From: Candidatus Methanoperedens sp.
Lineage (GTDB): Archaea; Halobacteriota; Methanosarcinia; Methanosarcinales; Methanoperedenaceae
NCBI GenBank assembly: GCA_027460535.1
Contig: JAPZAR010000027.1
Coordinates: forward strand, 240,001 to 272,000
Length of the DNA: 32,000 nucleotides
Direction of reading: 5' to 3'
Positions 2,983 through 30,255 of this stretch are shown in pieces. The position numbers were made by a program, and so were the translations under genes. The notes under the pieces were generated by a model. It ran no database searches. It was not told the DNA's origin and was given only the letters and a program-made list of their open reading frames with translations. Position 1 is the first letter of the stretch. Every line of letters begins with the position of its first letter.

Positions 2983-3127
2983 GCCCGCAAAAATAAGAGA
3001 GTTTCAATCGCTGCAAACATTTCAACACAGAATATGACGCGATAAACATTTTCAGTAATCCATGCGGACGATGTCCATAAGTCTTATATGAAGTGCACTC
3101 CTATATTAAAATGGGAGTGAAAAAATT

Positions 3128-4176: not shown

Positions 4177-4201
4177 CGCTTGTATTCAGGTTTTGGTCAT
4201 A

Positions 4202-8058: not shown

Positions 8059-8105
8059 ACGAAATATGAAAATTTATCCTTCATTTAGAAATCCATAGGA
8101 GGTTC

Positions 8106-8756: not shown

Positions 8757-8766
8757 TTCGATCAAT

Positions 8767-9456
8767 ATGTCTCAGACATCCATTAATACCCATACAGACC
8801 CCATTATTCGAAGCAACGTATACAAATTACTCTCGATCGGCTTCCGTTATCCTACGCCCCTACTCTTCAAAACGTTTCAGAATGGAAGATTCTTAGATGA
8901 ACTCATGCATAACATATCCTCAATTCCCGGGCTCAATAACCTTATCCTGGAAAGCTCTCCCATGGCAGGTCGTGAAAAAGATGCTATGAAAGGAATGACC
9001 CTGGCTGAATTCGAGATAAAATTTACCCGGACATTCGACGCTGGTACACCCATACCCCTATGTTCACCGTACGAGGGCCATTATTGCGATAAGCCAAGGA
9101 GCATGGTCATGCTTGAGGTAAGTGAATTCTACAATTTTTTCGGCCTGCACATGAGCCAGGAAGAAGGTAAACGGGAATTTCCCGATCATATCTGTGCAGA
9201 GCTTGAATTCCTGCATTTCCTGACCTTTAAGGAAGCCTTAGGAGAAGGCAAGGGCGAAAAACTCAAAGGATATCTTATGGCGCAGAAGGATTTTCTGGAA
9301 CGACACCTGATACAATGGATTCCTGAATTTTGCCTTAAACTTCAAGATTCAGCAAGTCTGCCTTTCTATGCCTGGCTTGCTCAAATTACATCACGGTTTA
9401 TCTCCTTTGAATTTGAACTGATTACTGCAAATTTAGATGAGTTTAATGAAAAATAA
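8767..9456 (+). CDS. NarJ/TorD/DdhD-family molybdoenzyme maturation chaperone (delta)
   Basis: 229 aa in the fourth position of the operon. Helical, with TorD-family features (YKLLSIGFRYP, FTRTFDAG, EFPDHICAELEFLHFL, FLERHLIQWIPEF). Confidence 0.75.
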   Translation: MSQTSINTHTDPIIRSNVYKLLSIGFRYPTPLLFKTFQNGRFLDELMHNISSIPGLNNLILESSPMAGREKDAMKGMTLAEFEIKFTRTFDAGTPIPLCSPYEGHYCDKPRSMVMLEVSEFYNFFGLHMSQEEGKREFPDHICAELEFLHFLTFKEALGEGKGEKLKGYLMAQKDFLERHLIQWIPEFCLKLQDSASLPFYAWLAQITSRFISFEFELITANLDEFNEK

Positions 9457-9528
9457 GGAATATTTTTTAAAAATATGAATCCGGTCTTTGGATAATCATT
9501 AAGTACTATCCATCCAATAAAATCAGGT

Positions 9529-10503
9529 ATGTTCCCGACAACGCGCATGCGAAGATTGCGCTCATCAAAGTTCCGCCCCATTGTGAGGGAGACGCAGCTT
9601 GAAGTCAAGGATTTGATATGCCCTGTTTTTGTGGATGAGACCATAACGGAACCATCTGAAATAAATTCCATGCCTGGCTATTATCGCCTTCCGCTTGATA
9701 TGGTTGCGGATGAGGCTCAATGCATCCTGGATCTGGGAATTCCGTCAATCATCCTTTTTGGCATACCCGGAGAGAAAGACGAGACCGGGACTCATGCCTA
9801 TGGCGAAAATGACGTAATCCAGAAAGCGATCCGTGCCATCAGGAAGGAGGACGGGGAGGATATTATTATTATGACCGACCTGTGCCTGTGCGAATATACA
9901 TCGCATGGTCACTGCGGAGTGGTGAGCGAAACGCATGAGATCCTCAATGACCCCACGCTTGAGATCCTGGGGATGGCCGCAGTGAGCCATGCGAAAGCGG
10001 GCGCGGATATCGTCGCACCTTCCGGAATGATGGACGGCATGGTGGGTGCCATACGCCGTGCACTCGATGGGAATGGTTTCACGAACACGCCCATAATGTC
10101 CTATGCAGCAAAGTACTGCTCTGTATTCTACGGCCCTTTCAGGGAAGCAGCCGGCTCGGGCTTCTCCTTCGGGGACAGGGCATCATACCAGATGGACCCC
10201 GGGAATGCGGATGAGGCAATGCGTGAAGTCGCGCTTGATATCGAAGAAGGCGCAGATATTATCATGGTCAAACCAGCGCTGCCTTACCTGGACATTGTTT
10301 ACCGTGTGAAAAAGAAGTTCAGGATGCCGACTGCGGCCTATCATGTCAGCGGTGAATATTCCATGATAAAAGCCGCCGCTGCGAAGGGCTGGCTGGATGA
10401 GCGAAAGGCTGTGCTTGAGTCGTTGCTGTCCATAAAACGAGCAGGAGCGGATATGATCCTGACGTATTTCGCCAAAGACGCTGCGAAAATGCTTGGTGAA
10501 TAG
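9529..10503 (+). CDS. hemB: Porphobilinogen synthase (delta-aminolevulinate dehydratase), Zn-type
   Basis: 324 aa with canonical MRRLRSSKFRPIVRET, the Cys-rich Zn site DLCLCEYTSHGHCG, the active-site Lys blocks IMVKPALPYLDI and SGEYSM, and YFA near the C-terminus. Confidence 0.97.
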   Translation: MFPTTRMRRLRSSKFRPIVRETQLEVKDLICPVFVDETITEPSEINSMPGYYRLPLDMVADEAQCILDLGIPSIILFGIPGEKDETGTHAYGENDVIQKAIRAIRKEDGEDIIIMTDLCLCEYTSHGHCGVVSETHEILNDPTLEILGMAAVSHAKAGADIVAPSGMMDGMVGAIRRALDGNGFTNTPIMSYAAKYCSVFYGPFREAAGSGFSFGDRASYQMDPGNADEAMREVALDIEEGADIIMVKPALPYLDIVYRVKKKFRMPTAAYHVSGEYSMIKAAAAKGWLDERKAVLESLLSIKRAGADMILTYFAKDAAKMLGE

Positions 10504-10506
10504 GAT

Positions 10507-11133
10507 TTGGGAAAGTATTATATTCTGGTAATCTCGGCTTTTTTGCTGTTTTCAGGATGTATAGATGAGGCCAATGTCGCTCAACCGGTAGCTGAACAAC
10601 AGGTAACTGAAGTAACCCCCGCCCCATCTCCAACTTCGATCAACCTTCCACCCGCGACTGTCCAGCCGACTACGACAGTTCCAAAACCTGACGAGACGGT
10701 CCAGGGATTCAAGAATAATTCCGTTGCGGCAGAAGTCAATTACAGAAATTACGTCGACTGGTTCACTCATATTAATGTAAATATCAGGGCTTATACACCG
10801 GAAGAATATGTCTGCGGGCAGTATACTGTAGACATGATTAACGCTTCAGAAAAAGCAGGCTTTGTGGCGTATTTCGCAGCGGTGACATTTTCGGATGGCA
10901 CGGGACATGCGCTTGTATCGTTCAAATCAACTGTCTTCGGAACAACCTCGTGGTATTTCTTTGAACCTCAGACCAATAAACTGATGACACCGGAGACGCT
11001 TTCACAGGTGCTCAACCGGAATCTGGGTGAAAATGTCAAAGAAGTTACTGTGTACCGTTACTTCGATGATGCCGGGGACAAAGACCCCACAACATGGGAG
11101 TTCGCCTATCCTCTATTCAATAAAAAATATTAG
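10507..11133 (+). CDS. Lipoprotein with a Pro/Thr-rich linker and a Cys-His (transglutaminase/papain-like) core candidate
   Basis: TTG start 4 nt after the hemB stop gives (M)GKYYILVISAFLLFSGC, a well-formed lipobox. The linker is PAPSPTSINLPPATVQPTTTVPKP. Then come YVCGQYTVDM ... GTGHALVSF ... FFEPQ, which look like a Cys/His/acidic triad. Confidence 0.6.
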   Translation: MGKYYILVISAFLLFSGCIDEANVAQPVAEQQVTEVTPAPSPTSINLPPATVQPTTTVPKPDETVQGFKNNSVAAEVNYRNYVDWFTHINVNIRAYTPEEYVCGQYTVDMINASEKAGFVAYFAAVTFSDGTGHALVSFKSTVFGTTSWYFFEPQTNKLMTPETLSQVLNRNLGENVKEVTVYRYFDDAGDKDPTTWEFAYPLFNKKY

Positions 11134-11565
11134 CTACTGTATCGTAGCTTTCAGGATCTTATCGCCTTTCCTGATATTCGAGGCAACGCTCTGGCCTTCG
11201 ATAACCTGTCCGAAGACCGCATAATTCTTATCAAGGAACTTTGCATCCTCGAGGCAGATATAGAACTGCGAACTTGCGCTGTTCGGGTCCTGCGATCGCG
11301 CCATGCCCACAGCGCCTTTCTTATGCGTGAGCGAGGGTGAGATTTCAAGAGGAATCGTCTTCGACGAGCCTCCGGTACCATTCCCTTTCGGGTCGCCGCC
11401 CTGAATAACGAATCCCGGCTCGACACGGTGGAAAATAAGGCCGTTATAGAAACCTTTTTCTGCCAGGTCTATGAAATTCTTTGTGGTGATGGGGGCTTCC
11501 TTTTCGTGAAGTTCGAATTTTATCGTTCCTTTTACTGTTTCCAATACTGCTGTTCTGTTTGGCAT
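11134..11565 (-). CDS. ppiB: Cyclophilin-type peptidyl-prolyl cis-trans isomerase
   Basis: 143 aa with [22 protein letters not shown] and SQFYICL motifs. Convergent with the lipoprotein gene, with no spacer between them. Confidence 0.93.
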
Positions 11566-11678
11566 AAGTATCGAGGAAGCTTAGAGTAGGTCATGGTATA
11601 ATTGCTTTTTGAAATAAACCAAATTATAGATAAAGCTGGCAGTCAGGGAAAAGAAAATAATGATCGGGACTTCGAAAA

Positions 11679-12107
11679 TCACTCTATGATCCTGGCCACT
11701 ATCCCATCAAACCCGCCATCGAAACTTGCCAGGTGTTCGATATCCCTGCTGTTCATCAGTTCTATGGTTGTGCAGTCTGTAAAACTCAGCTTCTTATTGG
11801 CATATTTCACAAAAATATTCCATCCTTTGTTAAGCACTTCTTTATCCACAAAAAGCAAGTTCATGAATTGCGGCATGCCCTTCTCTTTATCTCCCAGTAT
11901 CAAATCCCTGGCTCTTGAAGCATTCCTGACATCTCCCGTTTTGTAAAGCAGGAAAGTCACGACTTCATCAAAAACCGCATTCGAGGTAAATGCAGCTCCA
12001 TGCTTATTTTCCATAATACCGTCAATAAGGTCAGAGGCTTCAGAATGAAGCTTGTCCTTCTCATTTACATAGGCAATGTATATGCCTGCATCGATGAAAA
12101 TGCTCAT
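11679..12107 (-). CDS. vapC: PIN-domain ribonuclease toxin (VapC family)
   Basis: 142 aa. The acidic PIN quartet is in context: FIDAG, FDEVV, SFTDCTT and SFDGGFD. The start overlaps the upstream small gene by 4 nt (ATGA). Confidence 0.85.
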   Translation of the reverse strand: MSIFIDAGIYIAYVNEKDKLHSEASDLIDGIMENKHGAAFTSNAVFDEVVTFLLYKTGDVRNASRARDLILGDKEKGMPQFMNLLFVDKEVLNKGWNIFVKYANKKLSFTDCTTIELMNSRDIEHLASFDGGFDGIVARIIE

Positions 12108-12571: not shown

Positions 12572-13405
12572 ATGCAAATCCGTGAATATGCCGGAAAATT
12601 GAGCGATTCAAGGCCTTTTCTGTTGGTCATTTCTGTGGTTGTGGGCATTGTTCTATTCAATATATTCATCGGGATCCCAAAAGTGGGAATAATCACACTC
12701 AACACTCCATTCATGGCGGAAGATACAAAGAGCGATATAGTCAGTATGCTGAAGTACGCGGGGGACGATCCTTCTATTAAAGCCGTAGTTATTAACATGG
12801 ATTCTCCGGGGGGCGAAGTTTCTAAGATCGAGGAAATATATCTTGAGACCCTGAAATTAAGGGCAAAGAAACCAGTTGTGGTCTCTGTGGACAGCAGCGC
12901 ATTGTCCGGAGGATATTATATTTCATCTGCGGCAAACTTCATCTATGTCAAACCGTCATCGGAGATAGGCAACATTGGCGTAATTTCGACATTGCCTGAG
13001 CCCTGGAAACCCGACAGTGTGCAAATAACCACAGGCCCATTCAAGATATCAGGAAAGTCCCAGAAAGATTATACTGCCCAGGTGGAGACCATAAAACAAG
13101 GATTCCTGATGGCGGTGATATCGCAGCGCGGGGATAAACTGCACGTTGATTCGGAGCGCTTATCCCGCGCCGAGATATTCCTCGGATCTGAGGGAGTAAA
13201 ATACGGCCTCGCTGATTCGCTTGGAACAGGGTCAGACGCAATCCGGAAAGCCGCAAGCATGGCAGGCATCGCAAATTACGATACCCTGAACATAAACAAG
13301 GCTATGAACATCTCTTTCAGCGGGAATTTCCACGGTCTTGCCGGACTGAATAAAACCGTAACTCCTGTTAATTACTACATATATGAGGAGACAGAGGAGT
13401 CATGA
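12572..13405 (+). CDS. sppA: Signal peptide peptidase SppA (S49 family, 36K type), N-terminal TM anchor
   Basis: 277 aa. TM segment PFLLVISVVVGIVLFNIFIG, followed by S49 blocks VVINMDSPGGEV and ALSGGYYISSAANFIYV. Confidence 0.85.
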   Translation: MQIREYAGKLSDSRPFLLVISVVVGIVLFNIFIGIPKVGIITLNTPFMAEDTKSDIVSMLKYAGDDPSIKAVVINMDSPGGEVSKIEEIYLETLKLRAKKPVVVSVDSSALSGGYYISSAANFIYVKPSSEIGNIGVISTLPEPWKPDSVQITTGPFKISGKSQKDYTAQVETIKQGFLMAVISQRGDKLHVDSERLSRAEIFLGSEGVKYGLADSLGTGSDAIRKAASMAGIANYDTLNINKAMNISFSGNFHGLAGLNKTVTPVNYYIYEETEES

Positions 13406-14268
13406 ATAAGACACGCTTTGCCCTTGTGGTTATCGCTGTTGTATTCCTGGCGCAGCTTTTGTTCTTCTACAGGGGCATATATCTCCCGCCCCCTGTCAAG
13501 GAACCTGATTTTTTAAGCATCAATGTGATTTCTTCCATTCCGGTCGAGATAAAGGAGAACTTCACGAAAGGCAGCGGGACAGTTCTAATAGATTTATCCC
13601 ACGGAAATAACCTCAATGCAGAGGATTTGAATCTTCTCTTTTCCGGGATAATAGAGAGAGGATACAGCATTGAATATGTCAAAGATGGTTCCAACCTGGC
13701 AAAGAACCTGTCGAATTCCGCTTCCTTTGTGATCATCTCACCCTCAACTCCATTTTCATCGTCAGATGTAAAGGCGGTAAAAGACTTCGTAGCCGGAGGC
13801 GGCCGGATGCTTATGATCTCAGAACCGATAAAGAAAAGTGAAATAAACTCTCTCGCCACCGAATTCGGTATGTTGTTCTGGAACGATTATCTGTACAATC
13901 TGAAAGAGAATGAAGGGAATTTCAAAAATATCTATCTCACGGAATTCGCAGGGAACAATATCACGAGAGGTCTGCATAAGGTCGTTTTTTTCACGTCGGG
14001 TTCTGTTTTCGGGAAAGGTATAATATTTACTGATAACAACACGTATTCTTCTAGCAAGGGAGAAAAGGGGAGATACTCGGTCGCAGCAATGAACGATGAA
14101 AAGAATGTCCTTGCAATAGGGGATGCAACCTTTATGTCCGAGCCTTATGATGTAATGGATAATAAGAGGCTGGTCTATAATATCGCGGATTTCCTTGCCC
14201 CGCCATCGGGTCCAATATCACCTGGCAATGCGAGTGGGAATGCAACCTCCAATGTTACCCGGAAATAA
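13402..14268 (+). CDS. Membrane-anchored DUF4350-like / GATase1-like-fold protein
   Basis: 288 aa. ATGA overlap with the sppA stop. N-terminal TM helix FALVVIAVVFLAQLLFF. Then a pattern like DUF4350/GldG-type domains: VLIDLSHGNN, FVIISPSTPFSSSDVKAVKDFVAGGGRMLMISEP and NVLAIGDATFMSEPY. The C-terminus carries NAS/NAT/NVT sequons. Confidence 0.5.
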   Translation: MNKTRFALVVIAVVFLAQLLFFYRGIYLPPPVKEPDFLSINVISSIPVEIKENFTKGSGTVLIDLSHGNNLNAEDLNLLFSGIIERGYSIEYVKDGSNLAKNLSNSASFVIISPSTPFSSSDVKAVKDFVAGGGRMLMISEPIKKSEINSLATEFGMLFWNDYLYNLKENEGNFKNIYLTEFAGNNITRGLHKVVFFTSGSVFGKGIIFTDNNTYSSSKGEKGRYSVAAMNDEKNVLAIGDATFMSEPYDVMDNKRLVYNIADFLAPPSGPISPGNASGNATSNVTRK

Positions 14269-14303
14269 TAGTCATTAATAAGTGTATAATGGGGATATAA
14301 GAA

Positions 14304-14885
14304 ATGGTCGGAAATGACAAAGCTATAATACCACTTCACAGACCCGGTCTTAAAGAAAAACTTTTTTTCGTTTTCTCAGGTATTATCGTGAGCATACCTC
14401 TCACACTCTTCGTTGATGCATTCTCAAGCCATCTATGCTTCTTTATCCCAATAATTTATTCTGAAATTTGTACATCTTCCATTTTCGTACCATTTATTGA
14501 AGAATTTGCAAAAGCTTACCCTCTTTTCTACCGCCATGGGGAAACCGAAAGATCAATTTTTACTCTTGGATTCCTGACCGGCCTGGGATTCGGAATCACA
14601 GAGTTTTTCTTCTATGTTTTCGGTTCAGGGGCTTCGGTATATGTCAGATTACCTGCCGTACTGTTCCATGCATCCAGCACATCCATTACTGCCTACGGGA
14701 TAGCCACAAGACAACCGATGTTATTCTATCTCATCGCCGCGTTACTGCATCTTTTGAACAACTTTTTCGCTATCGCCGGCTCGATCTGGTTTATAGGAGG
14801 ACCGGCTGTCCTGATAATAACGTATTTCCTTTCCCTGTATCTGTACGGCAAAACATCTGAACGGATCGTATCAGAGGGGTCATAG
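14304..14885 (+). CDS. PrsW/CPBP-superfamily intramembrane metalloprotease candidate
   Basis: 193 aa with about 6 TM segments. Motifs occur in the PrsW order: FIEEFAKAYPLF (EExxK), GLGFGITEFFFY, VLFHASSTS and LLHLLNNFFA (HxxxN). Confidence 0.6.
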   Translation: MVGNDKAIIPLHRPGLKEKLFFVFSGIIVSIPLTLFVDAFSSHLCFFIPIIYSEICTSSIFVPFIEEFAKAYPLFYRHGETERSIFTLGFLTGLGFGITEFFFYVFGSGASVYVRLPAVLFHASSTSITAYGIATRQPMLFYLIAALLHLLNNFFAIAGSIWFIGGPAVLIITYFLSLYLYGKTSERIVSEGS

Positions 14886-17326: not shown

Positions 17327-17462
17327 TGTTATAAACTCGTCATGAATTGTAATCGTTCAAAAAGAGCGAGCCGTGCAGTGGATTATGGTGGTAATAACGG
17401 TAACTAATAACATACTCAGTGGGCGTAAGCTTAAGAATAAGGGTGATGGCAATATTATGCGC

Positions 17463-17520
17463 GGGGCTGGGGCGCGGGATGGGTATGCGGGGGGCTGAGA
17501 TGATGGGAGGAAATAAGGGG
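17463..17520 (+). promoter_or_regulatory. G-run cluster (potential G-quadruplex) on the coding strand just upstream of the likely start of the giant gene
   Basis: Read directly: GGGG ct GGGG cgc GGG at GGG tatgc GGGGGG ... GGG agg ... GGGG, ending 3 nt before ATG 17524. The first five runs satisfy G3+ with loops of 1-7 nt. Confidence 0.5.
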
Positions 17521-17523
17521 TCG

Positions 17524-20500
17524 ATGAAATTAAGTTTGAAGTTAATGATATCTAAAAATTATAGGAAAATCGTAACTAAAAGATTTCCTAAAATAATATA
17601 TATTTTATTTTTGATATTTACGATTATTCTATTAAGTTCTGGAAATGCCTACGGTTATGACTGGCCTATTAAGAATGCTCATCCAATAACTGCTGTTCTT
17701 GGAGAGTATAGGACTGGACCTCCTAAACATTTGCATACGGGAATTGATATTGGAGGAGCTGAAGGTACAGAAGTATATTCTGTAGAAACTGGCAAAGTTA
17801 CAAAAGTATCGATTAGTGCTGATAAAAACTCATATATCACAATAGGCAATTTCAAATATCAACATATTAAAGAATATATTTATAAAGATTTTGTAGAGGT
17901 TTTATCGGATGGAAGTGAAGAGGAATATCATATTGGAACATCGATAAAAATACAAACTGATTCGAGTCATAAAAATGACGTGGAAATTGTAGCCGCTAAT
18001 TCTGGATTACTCAAAAAAGGTTTACCAACTCTCTATGAATCAGATAAGATTTTTTATGTTCCAATTACTCAACCTATTGCAGTAACCAGAGATTATCCAG
18101 ATTCAAATGGAAATCTGGGCACCTCGGCAGGAGATCATCTACATTTTGAAGAAAACGAAGGGGGATTAAATCCATTAAGGATTGGGGGATTACAATCTTT
18201 TTCAGATACTTCAAAACCCAAAATCAATAATATTGAGATAGTAGAACAAGGGAGTGGTAATGCTCTTGGAAATTCAATTTATGGCAAAGTTGACATCAAA
18301 GCAGATGCTAAGGACTCAATTAGTGGAGGCAGTCAAACAGTGGGTGTTTACAAGATTGGATATCTTATTCAGAATTCCAATACATATCAAATCAATCAGG
18401 ATTGGACATACAATATTGAATTTGATAAAATATCTGGTTATAACCTTGATTTAATTTATGATAGTGGATCTACTAGTTCTAAATATATTTATTGGGTAAC
18501 AAACACTCCTTATGAAAACAAATTTTGGAATACAAAGCAAAAATTGAGCGGAAGCGAAACGGATGATGCCCAAAATAATCAGGAAGCTAAGTTTCCTGAT
18601 GACGTCTATTGGATATGGGTAGATGCACGGGATATAAGTGGGAAGGATGATGTAGATAATATCGAAAAAAGAGTGGATAACTTTCCACCTCAAATAAAAA
18701 ATACATATCCAGATTCAAATGAAATCAATGTTCCTGTTGATGCAGATATTAAAATAACATTTGATGAAGAAATGGATAAAAATTCGATATCTCTATCAAT
18801 TTCTCCCAACATTGCTGGAACTTTCAGTTGGAGCAATAATAATAGAAATCTGGTTTTCGAACCAACTGTAGAACTCCGACCAGCAACTGAGTATACTGTG
18901 AAAGTGGATGGCAAGGATACTGTGAGTAAAAGTATTGATGGGGATAAGAATGGAAACGAAGGTCCATCATATGAGTTTAAATTTAAAACCTCTACCTGTA
19001 CAATAAAAATAGACCATCCATTTTATAATATTCCAGATGGTCAAACTCAGACTCATCATATAAAAGTTAAAAATGAAGGGATTCCTTCAGCAAAACTGCC
19101 CATAACTCTTAGTACAGTCATCAATAATGCCGGTCAATGGACTGTAATTGACGGAGTTAATGGTCAGCAAGTAAACATTCCTATCGGTCAAGAATCCCAA
19201 GAATATCCTATCGTTGTAACAAACAATGGAGCATCGCACGACCTTGATATGACAATCAAAGGAGATGCCAACGGCTTCTCATGCACATATGAATTATACG
19301 ATGGAACCCCTGCCACTGACCACATCGCCGACCACCCCGACGACAGCTTCATAATCTCCGGTTCCAACTACCCCACACCCTGGCTTGTTGACACCGAATC
19401 CAGCACAGGCATCCTCAAGACCGGATGGGGAGAGGGAATGGGTCATGTGCTGGGCAAATATAACATCAGCACTGCCATTGTCAAACCAGATCTCACAATC
19501 CTTAATGAGCCATACCGCGAGCTTAATGATCTCAAAGTGCTGCTCGTCGGCTCAGCAGGTCTCACCGGTCTTGATAGTTCTCCAACTTTCAGGAAGAAGC
19601 TTGCAGACTTTGTCGATAACGGAGGCACGCTTGTAGCGCTTACGAGCCAGAACGGATATGAGTTCAATGCGCTGCCGGGCGGGGAGGTTTCGGGATATGG
19701 GTGGAACGAGGATCAGAGCTGTCAATACCAGTCGGTTTCTCTGAACACTTATCATTCTGTACTCTCTGGTCAGGAATCAACCACGCCGAGCATCAACATT
19801 GATGGTTACTTCACAAAATGGCCTAATAATTCCAAAATACTGCTCACAAGAACTAAAAACGGTATGCCTGCAATGATAATGTACGACTATGGAAGAGGGC
19901 ATGTCGTTGCGTCAGCAATGTATGATGATTGGGCATATGGCACATCAGGAGCCACAAATGATGGAATGAATCTTATCAGGGACGTTGTGACCTGGGCGAA
20001 AAATCCTGTGGAACTTGTAGATTATGCGCCTTCTGACATGGTTAACATAACTGTAAATGTTACAAATAGATTGGATTCAAATGTCAGCAATGTGAGCTTG
20101 AGATTGATCGATCCTGAAAGAAAATTTGTCGGGACAGTCAATGCTTCTGTTTTTATAGCATCATGGGATACCGTGCCTGTTAACTTCACCTACATTGCGC
20201 CTTCTAAACTTGGAATTTACACTATCGATTACTTGCTGAGCAATGAATCAGGAGCGATGGTGCAGGAAGAATTTGACGCAGCCAGCTTTTCAGTTTCAAA
20301 ATTCAAATCCAATCCATCCGGCTTTACGAATCAGGGCAGTAAACTCCAGATATGGGCAAATGCGCCTGAAAAAGCTGCAAAAGGGTCTGAGATATTATTC
20401 CGCATATATGTGCGAAATGATGAAGAAACTGAATTCAAAGGAAATATCGCTATAGGCGGTCATGAACAGGGAGGTCTCTTCTGGAGATATTACACCGCAT

Positions 20501-23500
20501 TGCGCGACATTTCAGTACCTCCTCATTCTGTTGGGGAGTTTACCTATACATATGATATCATGTTGTCCACGAGCTTTTATTTCGGGCTTTACAGGCAGGG
20601 CGCTAACTATGAAAACCAGTGGTTCCATTCAGGTTCAATTGCATCGAGTGAAAAAGGAGTATGGGTTTTTAATCCGCTTGTTGATGTTGAATTGCGAACT
20701 GATATGAGCCAGTACGGGAAAGGAGATGAGGTTTTTATATTTTCAGACTTCATTAATAAGCAAGGCTCTGATTATAACTTATCTGCCAATTTCAAGATTC
20801 TTGATCCGGATAATAGTATTATTTTTGAAAATACTACTGATTTGAACCTTTCCTCATATGAAACAAAATCATTATATTTTAATTATTCTCTTCCAAATAA
20901 ATCAAAATCAGGTTTTCATGTGATAAACGTTGAGGTCTTCAGGAATAACGAAAAGATCGGATACGGCTCAACATATTTTGAGGTTGGATCTGCTTATTTA
21001 AAAATTAATATTTCAAAGCCTGAGATGATAGTTCCAGGGGCAATCAACACCTTTTTCTTCAATATAACCAACATTGGATTAGGAAATGCATCTGATAGCA
21101 GGCTGAATATAACATTATTGAATCCTGCTGGAAATGCTATTTTCAGCAACAGCACGTTTCTCAATATTTCGATAAATCAGAGCGTCATATACTCCATAGA
21201 TGTTCCTGTGAATGAAATTGACTTCGGGAAATATGTATTAAAATACTCGTTGAATCAAGAAAAACTGGACATAAAAGGTGAAATACCTCTGCAAAATTCC
21301 GACATCATTACACTTAATTTCGATAAGCCATCTTATCGAATAAGAGATGATCTCGGTGCAGTTTTAAGCATAGTTAATAAAGGGTTATTTTACCAGAATC
21401 TTTCCGTGAACATCTCGATACCTGATGCCAATTTCTCAAAAAATGAATCGTTCGAAATTCAGCCGGGCAAGACTTTAACAAATGATCTAAATCTGACACT
21501 GCCAGATAATTTAACACTTGGAAACTATCCTGTAAATGTCACACTTGCCCTCAATAATACATTCTCTAAAGCCTTCACTTTTAATATACCTGAGTCTAAC
21601 CTGAAAGCATCGTTTGAAGTCCTCAATGTGTCCGCAGGAGAAAACTTGAGCGTAAACATAGAGAATACCGGAGGCGTGGATACTACTGTAAATTATACTC
21701 TTACTTTGAATGGAAATGGCTACTACAACTCTACAAACGGCAGTATCACGGTTTTGGCAAATGTTTCAAGTAATGTTAATTTACCACTTCATTCGGGTCT
21801 GAAAAATGGAAACTATATCTTTGCTTTGACTTATAAGAATTCAAGAACCGGAACATGGGATTACTTGAAAAAACAGGTGCATGTAAATGGGGTTGAAGGA
21901 GATGTAAAAGTCTCAAATGATCGAAGAATTTATTTAACTGATAATGTTATTGAGTCACTTTCAAATCTTACAAATCTCAATAAGACTAACATTAATGGTA
22001 CGCTGAATCTCAGGATATATTCTCCTGATAAAATAGTTACTCCAATCCCATATTCAGCATCCGCTGACATCGGACTCAACAAGAATTTCATAGTACAAGT
22101 TGATAATGACACATTGAGTAGCGGTTGGTATTATCGCAATTTTAATTATCATATTTATATGAACAATATCGACGATTCCAGCGACACAATTCTGTCTGGT
22201 CTCAGGTTCAGCGTGCGAGCAGATAATATTACGAATGTCGGATCGCAGCAGTATGCAACATGGAATGAGACATCAGTGGACTGGATATTTCCTCCTGACC
22301 AAGTCATACAGGAAAACGATGGTTTTAGCACGGGTTTTGATGTTAATTATCCAGAATCGAAATACTTGAATGTCAACATGGGTAGATGGATGAACCAGAC
22401 AGAATTTAGTTCAACTGGCTATCAGCTTGCGATGTTTAATGTTACTTTTGAGGATACTGACTTTATGTGGGTTAATGGTAATATCTGGCCCGGAGTCGGT
22501 TGGGGAGTAAATGCATCTATTGTTCCCGGTACATTCATCACTGATGCCCCTGTACGCAACGTCGTTGAAAGGGAAAATAATGTCATGATTGAGTTCGATA
22601 AACAACGAATCGAAACTGGAGTTACATACAACTTCTCCGTTATCATTAGAGTAGAGCCTCCAAACGAGAGGACAGTAGTATTCTATAAACCATCATTCAA
22701 TATCGATATGGGTTATTCCCATGTCAATGTACCCGGAGGATTGGGATTTACTGCAGAAATACCTTCTTCTATGCTTCCAGAGCATGTAAGTTCTATTTCT
22801 GCATCAACAAACATCTTTAATTCGTGGCAGAGTATATGGGTCAATGACTACGAAGTTATCGGATGGCTCAATAGTGTTGCAAGAACAACAACAATAGGAA
22901 CAAGTCTCCCCAATACGGATCATGAAACTGTGAGATCTACGTACTATGGATCGACATCAACCCCAACACTCACCGCCGCGCTCTCCAACTCCGGTGGCAG
23001 TACCTGGCAGTTTTATGCAGATATAACGATAAACAACACAGGCGGTGCGTTGAGCGCTTACCAGGTGCCAGTTAGTCTCAACGGCAGCAGTTTCCCAACA
23101 AATGTGCAGAACAGCGGCGCAGACATCAGGTTCACAGATGCAAACGGTGCTGAGTTGAGCTACTGGATTGAAAGCTGGGATTATGCAAACAAACGCGCCA
23201 AAATCTGGGTGAATGTCACGAGCATACCTGCGAGTGGAAGCACGACCATAAGAATGTGGTATGAGAATCCAGTCGCAACGAGTTCAAGTAATGGAAAAGC
23301 CACATTTGTGTTTTTTGATGATTTCGAGAATGGTAATCTGAATGATACATGGGTTTCAGGTGATATATGTGATGGCAATACAATAACTGTCGAGCAAGGA
23401 AGAGTTAAATCAACAAGCAATTGTGATTTTATAGAGACTTTACAACAGTTTTCAGGAAATCTGGCAGTAACAGTAGATGTTGAAAAAGTTTCAATCGCGA

Positions 23501-26500
23501 ATAGTGGGTGCTGGGACTTTCATCTCAAATGGAATGGTAATAATGCACAAGGTGCGTTAAGATTCGATCAAGATGGAGTTGATGGAATAAGTATTGGTAA
23601 TAACTGTGGGAATGAATATAATATTCCTGCCTCTAATCCAAACAAAGGAAATATAACTTTATTTGCAGAAGGGGGGAACTATAAATTCAAATACACTGAC
23701 TTAAATGGCGTTTCATTGGTCACAGACGATTATCCAGCAAGTTCATACTTAGGAAAGTTAAAAATAGACCTTGCAGGATATGAATCTGCGCCCCGCTATG
23801 TAGATAATGTCAGGATTCGTAAATATACCTCACATGAACCGACATTACCAGGCGAATACTCAACGGCAGAACCTACTTATACACCCCTCCCAACACCACC
23901 AGCGGACGTTTGGATACAAAATCCTGCGAACGAGCACTATTATAAAATAATAACGTCCATGAATTGGTCAGAAGCAGAAGCCCAGGCAGTGACATGGGGA
24001 GGGCATCTTGTTACTATAAATGACAGAGAAGAGGAATTATGGTTGAAAAATCAGTTTGGAGAGGAGGATTTTTGGATAGGGTTTAATGACATACAGGGAG
24101 AGGGGAATTGGGAATGGGTTAGCGGAGAACCTGTAACTTATACAAACTGGGCTCAAGGAGAGCCAAACAATAATGGAGTAGGAGAAAATGCCGCAGTTAT
24201 GAACTGGGGTACAGACGGAGATAGCTGGAATGATTTACCAGAAGAAGGCAATAGTCGAGGTATTGTTGAAAGAATTACAGTTCCCCCCAGTACAAATCCA
24301 AACCAAAGTTATTTCGTCTGGAATACCACCATCCCCGTTGACATCCCACCTGAAGGCATGACCATTCCGGTAAGTGTAAATATTGCTTCAGCTTTGAATA
24401 AAACCACTGGCAGGCTTGTGCTGGAGGCAGTGCTATATTCTAATTCCAGCCAGGTATTAAGCTCTTCCAATTACACTTTTTACGTATTCGATACAAATAC
24501 CACAATATCGCTTGAAACAGATAAAGAAGTTTATAGACCCGGGGAATCTGTGGTTATCAGCGGGGAGATCAAGAACTGGGCAGATGCTCCTACATCCAAT
24601 CTAAATTTTGTGCTGGATGCCGATGGTAATGAACTTCTCACTGAAACTTTCCTGCTCGCTGCTGGGGAAACAAGAAGTTTCAGTTCGGTTTATTCCTCTA
24701 ATACTTCATTTAATATCAATGCAGGCATTGGTGATATTAAAATATCCCAGCCTGTTGAGGTTGAAGCGCCTCTTCTTGTGGTTAACATCACTTCGCCAGA
24801 TGTCGCTGGCAGAGGGGAATTTATTGTTGCCGCTCTCCTTGAGAATCCCGGCAAACTGGTCATTAATGAGACTCTGGACGTTGAAGGAAATATCTACAAT
24901 GTAAGCATTCATGGAGGAGAGAGTAAACTAATAGAAACTCCTTTTATTATAAACAAGAATAAAACAATCAACATAACTTTGCTTGGCGATGTTGATCTCA
25001 CACTTTCCCGATTCGTAATATTCGGGGAAAATGCAAGCCTGAAGGTATCACCAGAAATATATTCCCCTGGACATTTTGAGGTGCCTTACAATATTGAGAA
25101 TACTGGCAGTTTGGAGACAGAGTTCAATGCAAACTTCAGCCTTGAAGATAAAATAATTGAAAAAGCAGTATATCTTCCTGTGGGTGGAAACTTCTCAGGA
25201 AGCCTGATTTTTAATCTTTCTGAAGGCAATTATATTTTAAATTATACAACGCCCTTCGAGACAGGAAACGTCAGCTTTAGAGTTGCAAAGATGGATATTG
25301 CAGGAATGAATGCTACGATTCCTGAGAAGGCAATCGGGAATATTCTTGCTGTTGTGGTTAATGTCTCTAATATGGGTGCCAACAACTTTACAGGAAATAT
25401 TGAGATAGACACAGGCTTTTATTCAAATAATAGTTTATTGGTCCTCAATGTCAGTGAGAAACGAAGTCTGATTTTAAAAGTTCCAACATTAATCCCGGGC
25501 GTGTTCAATGCTACTGTAAGACTGCTTCACAATGGCAATATCATAGAGGAAAAAGTTGGAGAGTTTGAAGTTCTCGGCCCTGAATTTACAGTAACAAGCG
25601 CGCCCACAAACCTGAACTACAGGCTTGGGGAGAATGTAACTATGAGCTTTGGTGTTTTAAACACCGGAGGTATGGAAGGTACAGCAGGACTCAACCTGAC
25701 TATCCCGGGCATCTACGAGAATAACAATAATTCCTGGGTCGCGCCCGGTGAAGTGAAGAACTTGAGCTTTAGCTTCATCCTGCCTGAAGACCTTGAAGAA
25801 AAGAGCTACAAATTCTTATATGGCTTTAACGGTGACATGCAGGAAGGAAGCTTCTTTGTCAAGGGCGCCAGCATTTCGGTTGAAGCTGCGCTTGATAAGC
25901 CTTTTTATAACGAAGGCGATACTGCGGTTTTAACATTACCTGTTAAGAACAACCAGGACTTTGACTTGCCTTTATTCTCCAGAGTGAAATTCAATGACTA
26001 TGATAATATCACCTATTTCAAGCTCTCAGGCTCAGGCAGCGAGACTTTGACCTTTAATGTTCCCGTTCATTTCACTGGAGATAAGATATTCTACAGCGTT
26101 TACATGGCTTCGGGAAGATCTCTCTATATCAATTCCATGTATGCCTATGAAAAGCCAAAAGATGACAGCGGTATAACCCTTTATACAGACAAGCAGGTAT
26201 ACTTAACAGGTGAAACTGTAAATGTGTTTGTCAACGTCACCGGAGACGGTACATTAAACATGACAGCACCGGGCTTCAGTACCACAAGGTCATTGACAGC
26301 AGGCGATTCTACAGTAATTAGCTTTACCCTGCCTGAGCTTAAGTCTGGCACATACTACATCGAATATACATTTGGAAACTTCTCTTCATCCTATCCATTT
26401 GATGTTGACGGCTATTCAGCAAAGATACTTGAGTTCACTCTGGATAAAGAAATCTATGATATCGGCGATACCATGAACATGAAAATGCTTGTGGATGCGA

Positions 26501-27531
26501 ACAAGGACTTCGCAGGCACTGTAAAGATGTGGGTGTATGGCAATAGCGCTGAGGACAGCTTTGAGTTCAGCAGGGAATTTGTAAAAGGTGAGAACAGGGT
26601 AGAGGTTAACAGGACTTTAAATACAAGCTGGTCTGGCATTCACTCAGTAGCATATGGTGTGTATGCCGATATACCAGGTCATTCTCTTGTACTCCTCGCC
26701 TCTGGAGAAGAGTACTTTGATGTAGTGGATCATGTGCCTCCTTTGATCACAATAACCTCGCCTCAGAATATTGAATACACAACGAGTTCAGTACCTCTGA
26801 TCTTTAGCATAGAAGATACAAGCGATATAGAGTGGACAGGTTATAGCCTGGACGGCGCAGAGAATGTAACGATCAGCGGAAGTAGTCTATTAACAGACCT
26901 GACAAACGGCAACCATAGACTAATTGTATATGCAATGGACTCGGCGGGAAATACAGGTTCAGCATCGACTGACTTCATAATTGGTAGCACACTGCCAAAA
27001 GAGGCGCATGCAGAAGCGGTCATCATGTTCGACACGGCATCGAAGGATATCAATGTGTATAACAACGGAACTGGAAGCGAGGTAAGCTACGTCATATTGC
27101 CATCGAAGAAAGAAAAGAATGATAAGAAAGAACAGGATAAGGCCGATGATAAAGGCTGGGAACTGAGACAGTATACGCTCAAAGATATTTCCGATAACTC
27201 GCTTGTGCTTGTTTTAAAACACAAGACGGAGGGAAAGGAAACAAAGATCGAAATCGTCAGCATGCAGTACAACAGCGAAGCAATAATCGAGACAGCAAAG
27301 AATACGATACAGGCTCAGTACTCTGAAGAGAAGAATGGCATGTTCAAGGAATTGGAGCAGAAGATCGAAGTCGATAAACTCCTGAAAGCTGAGACAAAGT
27401 ACAATGCCAAGAAAGATGAAACGGAAATAAAGGTGAAAATGGAGGGAGAGAAAGAGCAGAAAGAAAACAGGGCAGGCAATGTGATATTGGAGTTGTTTAC
27501 TGAAAATGGTATCTTAAAGCTCAGATACTAG
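17524..27531 (+). CDS. Giant (about 3335 aa) N-terminally anchored/secreted multidomain surface protein: M23 peptidase, Ig-like (Big_5), GATase1-like, CARDB-like arrays, DUF2341 plus LamG-like, C-type lectin, C-terminal Ig-like and Lys/Glu-rich tail
   Basis: A single uninterrupted 10-kb ORF. Start placed at ATG 17524 ([44 protein letters not shown]: basic n-region plus a hydrophobic core). The 35 upstream codons from GTG 17419 are Gly/Arg/Met-rich and encoded by the G-run cluster. Domain evidence is given in the sub-features below. Confidence 0.9.
   Translation: [3335 protein letters not shown]
17650..18200 (+). other. Domain: M23 (LytM/lysostaphin-type) zinc metallopeptidase
   Basis: HxxxD motif [10 protein letters not shown] (His at 17734) and HxH motif [10 protein letters not shown] (18133-18150), with the usual GxxVxAxxxGxV strand ([15 protein letters not shown]) between them. 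Confidence 0.8.
18685..18990 (+). other. Domain: SbsA/Big_5-type Ig-like domain
   Basis: [35 protein letters not shown]...[13 protein letters not shown] is the typical Big_5 pattern: P-x-V/I-x-x-x-x-P, then I-x-I-x-F-x-E-x-M/V, then T-x-Y-x-V. Confidence 0.65.
19531..20000 (+). other. Domain: GATase1-like / DUF4350-like module
   Basis: [40 protein letters not shown] ... [14 protein letters not shown] ... [10 protein letters not shown]. The layout matches that of the 13402-14268 protein. Confidence 0.4.
20001..22100 (+). repeat. Array of diverged CARDB-like beta-sandwich modules (first block)
   Basis: A recurring [VI]-x-N-x-G signature about every 100-120 aa ([31 protein letters not shown]). 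An earlier instance, [10 protein letters not shown], lies at about 19060. The repeats are at protein level only; I saw no DNA-level repeats. Confidence 0.55.
23005..23830 (+). other. Domains: DUF2341 followed by a LamG/concanavalin-like lectin fold
   Basis: [25 protein letters not shown]...[51 protein letters not shown] is a near-textbook DUF2341 pattern. The following [17 protein letters not shown]...VDNVRIRKY is typical of Laminin_G_3-type domains. Confidence 0.75.
23911..24270 (+). other. Domain: C-type lectin-like domain with Ca/sugar-site motifs EPN and WND
   Basis: [45 protein letters not shown]...[34 protein letters not shown]...WNDL. EPN is at 24160-24168 and WND at 24226-24234. The WIGL/F-D and W-x-W blocks are present. 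Confidence 0.8.
24300..26730 (+). repeat. Array of diverged CARDB-like beta-sandwich modules (second block)
   Basis: Recurring x-N-x-G signatures: [40 protein letters not shown]. Also repeated 'TDKxVYxxGExV' module starts: [59 protein letters not shown]. Confidence 0.55.
26736..26985 (+). other. Domain: C-terminal Ig-like module
   Basis: [48 protein letters not shown]...[20 protein letters not shown] is a pattern common in archaeal and bacterial cell-surface Ig-like repeats. Confidence 0.5.
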
Positions 27532-29373: not shown

Positions 29374-30026
29374 AAATAGCAATACTGGGAGGCACAGGCA
29401 GCATCGGGGAGGGATTTGCACTCCGGTGGGCGGAAAAACACGACATATCGTTATGTTCGCGTGAAGTCGACAGGGCCGTCAGCGCAGCGAGTGAGTATAC
29501 CGACACGCTTTTGAGCAAAAGTATGGTTTGCTGCGGAATTACCGGATGCACGAACGAGGTAGGAATTAAGGATGTGGATGTTGTTGTGCTTTCCGTGCCG
29601 TATCATGGCGTAATAGACCTCTTGAAAAATCTCAAGCCTTATTTTAAAGACCAGATCGTGATCTCACTGGTGGTACCCATGAAAAAGAACCGCTGGTTTG
29701 AATACACGCCACCTAAGCAGGGAAGCGCGGCCCTTGAGATCAAAGACATTCTTCCCGCGAGCGTGAAAGTGGTTTCAGCATACCATAATGTATCCGCGAA
29801 GAAGCTGGCAAATATCGAATTGAGCCTTGATTATGATGTCGTGGTATGCGGGGATGATGAAGATGCAAAGAGCACTGTGATGGAACTGACAAAGGAGATC
29901 AAGAACCTGCGCCCCCTGGACGGCGGAGGCCTTTCTTCGTCTTACATGATCGAGTCCCTGACGCCTTTTTTGATTAACCTCGCGATCAGGAACCACCTCT
30001 CCGATCTTGGCGTAAAGTTCATATGA
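29370..30026 (+). CDS. fno: F420H2:NADP+ oxidoreductase / NADPH-dependent F420 reductase
   Basis: 218 aa from ATG 29370 (MKIAILGGTGSIGEGFALRWA, a Rossmann GxGxxG). The overall pattern is that of archaeal Fno/NpdG. The ATG overlaps the GT2 stop (ATGA). Track start 29205 lies inside the GT2 gene. Confidence 0.85.
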   Translation: MKIAILGGTGSIGEGFALRWAEKHDISLCSREVDRAVSAASEYTDTLLSKSMVCCGITGCTNEVGIKDVDVVVLSVPYHGVIDLLKNLKPYFKDQIVISLVVPMKKNRWFEYTPPKQGSAALEIKDILPASVKVVSAYHNVSAKKLANIELSLDYDVVVCGDDEDAKSTVMELTKEIKNLRPLDGGGLSSSYMIESLTPFLINLAIRNHLSDLGVKFI

Positions 30027-30051
30027 AAAACTTTAGGAAAGTTTTATCAAA
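30022..30051 (+). repeat. Direct repeat A, copy 1 (30 bp, exact)
   Basis: tatgaaaaactttaggaaagttttatcaaa. Contains the hairpin aaacttt-agg-aaagttt and the fno stop codon. Confidence 0.95.
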
Positions 30052-30106
30052 TGAAGGGGATGTTTCACATCCCCTATACGTCATAAAGGGGCGTAACCCT
30101 TTATGA
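30023..30106 (+). CDS. Unannotated small ORF 1 (27 aa), translationally coupled on both sides
   Basis: Hand translation: MKNFRKVLSNEGDVSHPLYVIKGRNPL. The ATG overlaps the fno stop (ATGA at 30023-30026). Its TGA (30104-30106) overlaps the next ATG (30103). It is below the 60-aa cutoff of the ORF track and is made entirely of repeat/hairpin DNA, so its coding status is uncertain. Confidence 0.35.
   Translation: MKNFRKVLSNEGDVSHPLYVIKGRNPL
30053..30092 (+). repeat. Direct repeat B, copy 1 (40 bp, exact)
   Basis: gaaggggatgtttcacatcccctatacgtcataaaggggc. Contains the hairpin ggggatgt-ttc-acatcccc. It is extended by ataaaggg-gcgtaa-ccctttat. Confidence 0.95.
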
Positions 30107-30131
30107 AAAACTTTAGGAAAGTTTTATCAAA
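30102..30131 (+). repeat. Direct repeat A, copy 2 (30 bp, exact), followed by a degenerate third unit
   Basis: Identical 30-mer located 80 bp downstream of copy 1. It is followed directly by the related unit aaacctttgaaaaaggtttatcaaa (30131-30155), which has its own hairpin. Confidence 0.95.
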
Positions 30132-30255
30132 AACCTTTGAAAAAGGTTTATCAAACGACGGGTATGGCACGCCATACCCGGACACGCCCTCCCGAGGCGT
30201 GACTCGGGAAGGGGATGTTTCACATCCCCTATACGTCATAAAGGGGCCTTTATGA
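30103..30255 (+). CDS. Unannotated small ORF 2 (50 aa), a paralogue of small ORF 1 with internal insertions
   Basis: Hand translation: MKNFRKVLSKTFEKGLSNDGYGTPYPDTPSRGVTREGDVSHPLYVIKGPL. It has the same first 9 residues as sORF1 and shares the 13-residue C-terminal block EGDVSHPLYVIKG. Its TGA (30253-30255) overlaps ATG 30252 of the next gene. Confidence 0.35.
   Translation: MKNFRKVLSKTFEKGLSNDGYGTPYPDTPSRGVTREGDVSHPLYVIKGPL
30159..30180. repeat. Perfect palindrome with 10-bp arms: cgggtatggc-ac-gccatacccg
   Basis: Read directly. It lies in the segment unique to sORF2. It is followed by two mutually exclusive hairpins, cacgcc/ggcgtg (30183-30201) and tcccgag/ctcggga (30190-30209). Confidence 0.9.
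30208..30247 (+). repeat. Direct repeat B, copy 2 (40 bp, exact)
   Basis: Identical 40-mer located 155 bp downstream of copy 1. Both copies end a few nt before a ...ctttATGA junction. Confidence 0.95.

Follow-up and report, generated by a model that had tools for sequence, protein, structure and literature searches.

Molecular means by which archaea antagonise bacteria have come to light only recently, in the form of small peptidoglycan hydrolases, M23 enzymes among them (PMC12352652). These archaeal enzymes are modular and are defined by a catalytic domain combined with a cell-wall-binding domain; one of them is Woldo of Halogranum salarium, which carries an M23 domain and two PG_binding_1 domains, antibacterial use has been demonstrated for the family that includes it, and archaeal hydrolases of the M23 type kill bacteria (PMC12352652). 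The same study reports M23 homologues mainly from Halobacteriales and Nanoarchaeia, and the one Methanoperedens entry found in the accessible part of its supplement is a different modular hydrolase, PG_binding_3 with GH108 (PMC12352652). An extracellular M23B peptidase has also been noted in a DPANN archaeon (PMC8561730). Here we describe a gene in a 32,000-nucleotide stretch of Candidatus Methanoperedens sp. (contig JAPZAR010000027.1; the whole stretch is called the window below), which encodes a 3335-amino-acid (aa) protein, hereafter the giant, that combines an M23-type head with long Ig-like stalks and a lectin-bearing insert. Candidatus Methanoperedens, an ANME-2 (anaerobic methanotrophic) archaeon of the Methanosarcinales, lives in dense mixed communities, where it oxidises methane with nitrate. 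The sequence suggests that the giant may be an exported, glycosylated, glycan-binding fibre with an active M23 endopeptidase that is probably aimed at bacterial cell walls, a composite model to which we give about an even chance.

Like Woldo, the giant shows signs of domain shuffling and has an M23 domain whose ancestry is bacterial, although its host is not known to make peptidoglycan. However, Woldo-type proteins are small and have recognised peptidoglycan-binding domains, whereas the giant has none of these but carries a lectin domain, DUF2341 and Ig-like stalks; of the two halves that define the archaeal modular peptidoglycan hydrolases, it has only the M23-type one. The SPEARE proteins of Nanohaloarchaeota are also very long archaeal extracytoplasmic proteins in which a protease is combined with laminin-G/adhesion domains, and they have been proposed to act on the envelope of another cell, their best matches being bacterial adhesion proteins (PMC6642349). 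In contrast to the giant, they combine a serine protease and a transmembrane anchor with a type III restriction-enzyme region in the cytoplasm, and no homology between the two was detected. A likeness in concept exists with the Archaeovorins and giant Omnitrophota proteins (bioRxiv 10.1101/2023.11.21.568195), which are giant multi-domain extracellular proteins implicated in attaching to and degrading the wall of another organism; these proteins, likened here by description only, exceed 10,000 aa, are bacterial, have other domain sets and serve a bacterium that attacks an archaeon. No characterised protein with the architecture of the giant was found, nor was any literature tying Methanoperedens to DUF2341 or to an M23 protein of its own.

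Signal peptide, M23 head, lectin domain and glycosylation sites

The giant is encoded by an open reading frame (ORF) on the + strand, as are all of its features given below, which runs unbroken from 17419 to 27531; translation from the ATG at 17524 gives 3335 aa (17524-27531, about 364 kDa). The protein begins with a signal peptide (17524..17655, aa 1-44) that has a basic N-region and a hydrophobic core at aa ~16-45, and aa 16-45 is the sole hydrophobic or transmembrane-like window in the protein. An alignment with 12 relatives showed that the motif Y(D/Q/N)WP(I/V) is conserved directly after their signal peptides, so that cleavage in the giant probably occurs between ...NAYG and YDWPI and the mature protein would start at YDWPI.

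The signal peptide is followed by a putative zinc endopeptidase head of the M23 (lysostaphin/LytM) type (17656..18168, aa 45-215). Its HTGID motif (HxxxD; H71 and D75) and its DHLHFE motif (HxH; H205 and H207) are both invariant in a 13-sequence alignment, the former, which would supply zinc ligands, aligning to HNGID/HYGID of solved M23 enzymes and the latter, with a catalytic and a zinc-binding His, to GPHLHFE of the structure 9gy1. The third motif, FKYQHI (YxH; H114), which holds the second catalytic His of the family, is aligned with FRYYH and similar sequences in most relatives, while two relatives are ambiguous. Both halves of the head align to the solved M23 peptidases 9gy1 and 5kqb, and the corresponding heads of relatives clear the Pfam M23 cut-off, with 31.4 bits for a bacterial ORF (L003, described below) and an E-value of 7e-27 for the small protein P0021. 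Because the five functional residues are present, both halves align and the relatives clear the cut-off, we accept the M23 domain, which is probably catalytic. Lysostaphin, LytM and zoocin A (MEROPS M23) share with this head the HxxxD, YxH and HxH motifs and the alignment of both halves; in contrast to them, the head, which is known from sequence, contains an insertion of ~55 aa, scores below the Pfam cut-off and is not accompanied by an SH3b or other wall-targeting domain. A phage-lysin origin of the head was also considered and is unsupported, since a tblastn search of the head against phage genomes gave no match.

The second functional domain is a cysteine-free C-type lectin domain (23905..24273, aa ~2128-2250), which had been called from the sequence in the initial annotation and is borne out by Pfam (Lectin_C, PF00059; aa 2145-2238, 51.3 bits versus a cut-off of 22.6, E 2e-13) and by PDB sequence matches up to E 4e-34, among them DEC-205, the mannose receptor, collectin, mincle, langerin and DC-SIGN. 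In its sequence, WAQGEPNNNGVGENAAVMNWGTDGDSWND, the EPN motif at aa 2213, the Glu in GENAAV and the WND motif at aa 2235 are intact and are the predicted calcium- and sugar-site residues, so the sugar class that the lectin recognises should be predictable from the EPN motif, which would favour ligands of the mannose, GlcNAc or glucose type. The similarity to animal calcium-dependent C-type lectins (mannose-binding protein, DC-SIGN, langerin and the mannose receptor) is significant along the full length of the domain, and the EPN and WND motifs are spaced as expected. Unlike these animal proteins, the giant's lectin is set in a prokaryotic stalk and lacks all of the canonical disulfide cysteines: there is no Cys in aa 2128-2250, nor any from aa 2029 to the C-terminus. 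A diversity-generating retroelement aimed at the lectin domain was looked for and rejected, as no template/variable repeat pair was found; no reverse transcriptase was detected among the neighbouring proteins scanned against Pfam.

Putative N-glycosylation sites distinguish the long stalks of the protein from its head. The giant contains 87 N-x-S/T sites, compared with 50±6 in shuffled sequences, and these are concentrated in stalk A (20014..22020, aa 831-1499; 36 sites, z 7.6) and stalk B (24301..26973, aa 2260-3150; 35 sites, z 6.9), while aa 1-600 have none (z -3.0). The homologous stalks of two bacterial proteins, P0002 and P0003, are not enriched in contrast to those of the giant (z -1.5 to 1.7), whereas Methanoperedens surface proteins have an N-x-S/T density similar to that of the giant, with 187 sites (z 14.9) in the native surface protein P0028 (MCZ7404449.1). 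These data suggest that the stalks have long been under selection as parts of an archaeal extracellular glycoprotein, and that the head may be either a recent, un-ameliorated replacement or a part that is kept free of glycans.

The G+C content at third codon positions (GC3) also varies along the gene. In the twelve flanking genes GC3 is 0.45-0.59, while the head (aa 1-575) is at ~0.2; a sharp step at aa ~575-600, where the values peak at 0.6-0.7, leads to the GATase1-like domain (0.53, host-like), which is followed by stalk A (0.35), DUF2341 (0.5-0.6), the LamG-like module after DUF2341 (0.25), the lectin domain (0.35), stalk B (0.42) and the C-terminal region (0.55, host-like). The DUF2341 cassette is itself split in this respect, with 0.5-0.6 at 22891-23358 versus ~0.25 at 23356-23898, though it is homologous from end to end with Methanoperedens surface proteins. 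Codon composition and glycosylation-site signatures appear to date the parts of the giant differently.

Bacterial relatives of the scaffold and origin of the payload

By homology, the giant belongs with a group of uncharacterised M23-headed giant stalk proteins from uncultured bacteria, among which it is the only archaeal example found. Two GTDB loci were found with the head. One contains the L002 ORF on CBFDSV010000001.1 (5893-12909, more than 2339 aa), with which aa 28-1054 of the giant are collinear by BLAST, the match running through the GATase1-like domain into the stalk; the other contains the L003 ORF of the Elusimicrobia genome HGW-Elusimicrobia-2 (4934-11869, more than 2312 aa). Both ORFs are still open at the end of the fetched locus, their sizes being lower bounds, and one of the two carries a Kelch propeller. 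Furthermore, aa 42-452 match P0004 (MEW6607027.1), aa 396-830, 980-1499 and 2295-3143 match P0002 (MDD5353813.1, 4079 aa), and P0003 matches parts of both stalks. The named relatives of the head, the GATase1-like domain and the stalks are all bacterial (WOR-3, Elusimicrobia and unclassified). The archaeal surface protein of the initial annotation is indeed encoded by an archaeon and predicted to be exported, but its scaffold is not an isolated archaeal invention.

The likeness takes two forms. The bacterial giants with a YxWP motif and an M23 head (L002, L003 and P0004) share with the archaeal one a signal peptide, the M23 head, the beta-rich region behind it and a Big_5 domain, while P0002 and P0003 resemble it in the two stalks and in having an insertion slot at the corresponding place in a split module. 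Nevertheless, identity to the Methanoperedens protein is only 26-38%, and the bacterial payloads consist of Kelch or other propeller-like regions, FG-GAP repeats and other inserts, in contrast to the archaeal domains and lectin of the giant. P0002 also differs in ending with a C-terminal domain of the FlgD-Ig/T9SS (type IX secretion system)-like kind.

Behind the head lies a conserved beta-rich region (18169..18675, aa 216-384) with the motifs GVYKIGY, YWVTN and YWNTKQ, which always trails this type of M23 domain. It is kept in all relatives of the head and is mostly strand in the structural model (predicted local distance difference test score, pLDDT, 50-77), and a Pfam scan of ten sub-segments of the giant at E ≤5 added nothing for aa 230-390, nor for aa 630-870, 1525-1800 or 1940-2140. 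The next stretch (18676..19314), which is collinear with P0002, P0017 and the L002 ORF, comprises a Big_5 Ig-like domain (aa 385-489, E 5e-13) and one beta-sandwich-like module (aa 490-597) recognised from xVxNxG motifs only.

The region 19315..20013 (aa 598-830, starting with DHPDD) encodes an M23-associated alpha/beta domain with a GATase1-like fold. No Pfam match and no meaningful PDB sequence or profile match was obtained for it, and eight close relatives show 41-59% identity. The AlphaFold model of this domain is of medium confidence (pLDDT 58.5; predicted template modelling score, pTM, 0.65), and a Foldseek search with it against the PDB returned the GH42 trimerisation domain, STM1381/STM3548 and 3rht (E 2e-6 to 5e-4, template modelling score ~0.45) as well as GMP synthase A and Pdx2 (2a9v and 2nv0) in the same range; weak Glyco_hydro_42M and DUF4350 matches were seen in homologues. 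The GATase1-like module proposed initially is therefore supported, with moderate confidence, at the level of the fold. Amidotransferase activity is not to be expected of it, because no Cys or His is invariant in a nine-sequence alignment and the Cys-His-Glu triad is therefore absent. P0021, a 421-aa protein, consists of a signal peptide, a canonical M23 domain and a GATase1-like domain, and its gene neighbourhood is uninformative. Since both P0021 and the L002 giant carry the pair, the M23 and GATase1-like domains travel together.

Stalk A consists of about 6.5 beta-sandwiches of the MG2/CARDB type and breaks off half-way through a split module; the remaining half opens stalk B, which goes on with about nine beta-sandwiches, the last of which is of the Big_13/OmpL47 type, where the matches to both families are weak. 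Stalk A is homologous to aa 690-1105 and 1507-1831 of P0002 and to aa 805-1273 of P0003, and stalk B to aa 2506-3400 of P0002 (31% identity over 909 aa) and aa 1807-2059 of P0003. An in-house profile was built from six modules of the DKxxYxxGE type and refined by iteration on the giant and two homologues. At E ≤3e-8 (Z=100) it detected 11 modules, whereas block-shuffled controls gave none; the matches are at aa 834, 1059, 1171, 1266 and 1371 in stalk A and at aa 2332, 2518, 2698, 2790, 2888 and 2973 in stalk B. With the public profiles, CARDB (PF07705) reached 14-17 bits against a cut-off of 22.7 (E 0.01-0.05), and MG2 (PF01835) reached 38.6 bits when summed over the protein against 32.8 (E 1e-9), with no single stretch passing. 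In the spacers described initially as CARDB-like, the in-house profile finds 11 MG2/CARDB-like modules; the CARDB label itself is marginal and was not confirmed. Adding the Big_5 domain, the Big_13/OmpL47-like end module and unassigned beta-rich intervals, we estimate a total of ~19-20 beta-sandwiches, which makes the initial count of about 20 a fair estimate, although direct sequence support exists for only ~13. The stalk modules are old and divergent, because self-BLAST detected no internal repeats and no tandem DNA repeats, of a kind prone to collapse during assembly, were found.

Between the two stalks, aa 1499-2260 of the giant and the corresponding inserts of P0002 and P0003 are wholly unlike one another, but the sequences on either side can be aligned: to the left lie the first ~50 residues of a stalk module, and to the right the rest of that module. 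Because the three proteins have these flanks in common and their inserts are unrelated, the site is a nested insertion slot in a split stalk module, the payload of which differs by organism. The payload of the giant, ~760 aa long, has three parts, namely an archaeal domain of 250 aa, a DUF2341 cassette and the C-type lectin domain, and two of the three are surface modules of the Methanoperedens type. That bacteria and the archaeon fill one shared slot with different payloads is a clear case of module exchange between domains of life.

The first part (22081..22848, aa 1520-1775) is one copy of an uncharacterised archaeal surface-protein domain of ~250 aa. A HMMER search with aa 1520-1860 retrieved 147 cluster representatives at E ≤1e-3, 100 of them at E ≤1e-10, with at most three copies per protein, and the named members are all archaeal (Altiarchaeales, Bathyarchaeota and Methanoperedens); no Pfam family corresponds to it. 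The segment 22100-22900, left unassigned in the initial annotation, is thereby placed in a family. With this family and the M23-associated GATase1-like domain, two sizeable uncharacterised domain families have been delineated. P0028, which lies on another Methanoperedens contig and is annotated as a 3838-aa 'S-layer protein domain-containing protein', has a C-terminal anchor, two copies of the ~250-aa domain (50-52% identity to that of the giant) and long internally repeated regions.

The second part, the DUF2341 cassette (22975..23913, aa 1818-2130), comprises DUF2341 followed by a module of ~185 aa that runs from FFDDF...W to VDNVRIRKY. DUF2341 (PF10102) was recovered as initially called, at aa 1865-1943 (93.3 bits versus 23.4, E 1e-26). 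Over 320 aa, the unit in its entirety shares 44% identity with the mature N-terminus/ectodomain of P0134, a stand-alone surface protein, and the relatives of the cassette are by name DUF2341 proteins of Ca. Methanoperedens or a PGF-CTERM protein, the ectodomains of which are 38-44% identical to it over the full length; the unit is thus a Methanoperedens surface-protein cassette. Unlike the giant, these Methanoperedens proteins and P0028 have C-terminal transmembrane or PGF-CTERM anchors (P0125 matches PF18204) and no M23, lectin or GATase1-like domain. The LamG-like module that had been proposed after DUF2341 was not recovered: aa ~1945-2125 gave no LamG/ConA-like Pfam match (e.g. PF13385 or PF02210) up to E 5 and no PDB sequence match. 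As the equivalent region of the relative P0114 shows a weak match to 3keto-disac_hyd of the ConA clan (E 0.002), the ~185-aa module is possibly a ConA/LamG-like jelly roll.

Proposed function and competing explanations

In the composite model, the protein would be exported by its Sec-type signal peptide, and the mature fibre, predicted to be heavily N-glycosylated, would be retained at or near the cell non-covalently, via its C-terminal region or via lectin-glycan contacts, with the M23 head at the far end. The lectin-type modules would bind glycans of neighbouring cells or of the matrix, and the head would cut peptide cross-links, most likely those of bacterial peptidoglycan, for antagonism, defence or nutrient release. 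As for its origin, the archaeon would have acquired a bacterial scaffold consisting of the M23 head, the Ig-like stalk and an exchangeable payload, after which the stalks would have gained glycosylation sites and native modules would have been loaded into the payload slot. To our knowledge, peptidoglycan is not made by Methanosarcinales. Cleavage of this polymer is what would be expected from the knowledge of the M23 family (PMC9662197) and from the precedent of the bacterium-killing archaeal M23 hydrolases (PMC12352652). An intact-looking M23 head and a lectin on a very long, predicted-glycosylated fibre make the giant gene a concrete candidate for contact, competition or defence of Methanoperedens against bacteria.

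Several observations weigh against this model. The giant's own Pfam M23 score (PF01551) is 20.3 bits when the full sequence is scanned and 25.4 bits with the segment, below the cut-off of 28.7, and the alignment reaches only profile positions 2-40 of 96. The low score is due to the ~55-aa insertion, which lies between the YxH and HxH motifs, is present in none of the 12 relatives, and could alter or block the substrate groove. The AlphaFold model of the head, made from the 13-sequence alignment, had a pLDDT of 44.8 and was not used for a fold search. What had been called a catalytic M23 domain keeps H71, D75, H114, H205 and H207 and has relatives that clear Pfam, but is itself under the cut-off. 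Moreover, Pfam scans of the giant detected no peptidoglycan-binding domain (LysM, PG_binding or SH3), and M23 enzymes also cleave substrates other than peptidoglycan. The giant gene may also be strain-specific, given that scans with six exact peptide patterns found no close relative of the whole protein in GTDB species genomes or JGI metagenomes, which is weak evidence of absence.

The orientation of the fibre is another weak point. The C-terminal region (26974..27531, 185 aa, ending in ...GILKLRY) has no transmembrane segment, there being no hydrophobic stretch past aa 45, and neither PGF-CTERM nor any other family in Pfam or NCBIfam matched it, so no anchor was identified; in addition, it gave no PDB match, and a pattern scan found no relatives in metagenome contigs. 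This agrees with the initial description of an N-terminal signal or anchor without a C-terminal transmembrane segment or PGF-CTERM. The region was also described as a Lys/Glu-rich tail, and Lys and Glu do make up 33% of the last 135 aa, but by eye the sequence resembles alternating beta-strands more than a plain charged tail. Because no anchor was identified, a stalk pointing outward from the cell is a conjecture. The earlier proposal of a stalk that presents glycan-binding and peptidase heads is in keeping with the anatomy, namely the signal peptide, the N-x-S/T enrichment, the M23 residues and the EPN/WND motifs, and the lysis of bacterial neighbours, matrix remodelling and recognition named with it are candidate roles.

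A more far-reaching form of the composite model, which we regard as possible but clearly less probable than the model itself, is that the giant would be a plug-and-play weapon assembled across domains of life, on a bacterial scaffold whose conserved split-module slot would take up various target-binding payloads. The archaeon would have captured this scaffold, adapted the stalks to archaeal N-glycosylation, added its own surface modules and a calcium-type lectin, and received a fresh low-GC M23 head; the product would lyse bacterial neighbours or predators on contact, and the GATase1-like domain would serve as an unrecognised obligate partner of this type of M23.

A different reading, to which we accord an equally low probability, is that of a self-directed adhesin or matrix scaffold, which would glue Methanoperedens cells to each other, to partners or to exopolymer, while the M23 domain would trim the cell's own surface or matrix proteins, or the giant itself, instead of attacking bacteria. 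Such a role would be consistent with a payload composed mostly of native surface modules and a lectin, with the lack of peptidoglycan-binding domains in the Pfam scans, and with a strong enrichment in glycosylation sites that P0028 and other structural envelope proteins typically show. However, conserved counterparts of the M23 head and its partner occur in bacterial secreted proteins, for which peptidoglycan is the obvious substrate, and we know of no M23 substrate in an envelope of the Methanosarcinales type.

It is doubtful that the M23 domain would be a non-catalytic, LytM-factor-like binding or regulatory module, which would leave the giant as a pure binding fibre. The sub-cut-off Pfam score and the ~55-aa insertion inside the domain would be in line with this, and LytM domains are often degenerate (PMC9662197); yet degenerate LytM domains lose metal ligands, whereas here all five residues are kept and the H, the D and the HxH are invariant across the family.

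Least probable is that the gene would be an assembly chimera made by mis-joins, or decaying foreign DNA in the form of a recently acquired and unexpressed passenger: the sharp GC3 steps (the first ~575 codons at ~0.2 versus flanks at 0.45-0.59, with more alternations beyond), a head without N-x-S/T sites, the lack of orthologues in the GTDB/JGI pattern scans, and the identity of the two contigs bearing the gene, which may therefore not be independent, would all be in its favour, but the 10-kb reading frame crosses five or more compositional transitions without a stop, the main junction lies within single bacterial homologues that have the same domain order (L002, aa 28-1054; P0002, aa 396-830; P0017), the low-GC3 block has host-like sequence on each side, so that two mis-joins would be needed, and the glycosylation sites of the stalks point to long selection in an archaeal host. 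The initial annotation had named breakpoints at the compositional shifts as a sign of a chimera; checked by homology, the shifts are real and are spanned by homologues with the same domain order. Given the open frame, these homologues and the host-like flanks of the low-GC block, assembly errors are an unlikely cause of the GC3 steps.

Gene copies, start site and neighbourhood

A search of 5.8 billion proteins recovered an identical protein in NCBI, named 'DUF2341 domain-containing protein [Candidatus Methanoperedens sp.]', the start of which is placed 26 codons upstream of the ATG at 17524. The NCBI copies are found on a 166-kb and a 303-kb contig with the same gene context as in the window, and the window is 100% identical to the 166-kb contig (GCA_027460495.1) across 16 kb. 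The 26-codon extension (17446-17523; MAILCAGLGRGMGMRGAEMMGGNKGS) is G-rich and lies upstream of the signal peptide, and for these reasons it is, by eye, more likely a 5' leader than coding sequence. A TATA-like sequence, TTTATATT, at ~17320 would imply a leader of ~175 nucleotides (by eye).

The flanking genes are chromosomal housekeeping genes, which include those for citrate synthase, a NarGH-type molybdoenzyme cluster, ALAD and adenylosuccinate lyase, together with a UbiE-type methyltransferase, a GT2 glycosyltransferase and others. At 4142-9456 lies a cluster of the type II DMSO-reductase family, which would fit the nitrate reductase expected in Methanoperedens: a NarG-like molybdopterin subunit of 962 aa, a NarH-like 4Fe-4S subunit, a haem subunit of the ethylbenzene-dehydrogenase type and a NarJ-like chaperone are encoded consecutively. 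A 208-aa ORF without a Pfam match follows the ALAD gene (10507-11133). Of three adjacent genes at 12572-14885, the outer two are for an S49/NfeD-like peptidase and a PrsW-family intramembrane protease. The 288-aa protein encoded between them (13402-14265) shows weak matches to DUF4350, ABC_transp_aux and GIFT of the GATase1-like clan; it was considered as kin of the giant's GATase1-like domain and rejected, the hhalign probability being 2% and not significant.

Rfam detected nothing in the window. The intergenic region before the HhH-GPD gene contains two perfect 40-nucleotide copies of a sequence with the hairpin GGGGATGTTTCACATCCCC (30053-30092 and 30208-30247) and, within the same region (30022-30247), two perfect 30-nucleotide palindromic copies (30022-30051 and 30102-30131) with a third copy at 70%; these repeats could represent a small mobile element or else a repeated element with a role in regulation or termination.

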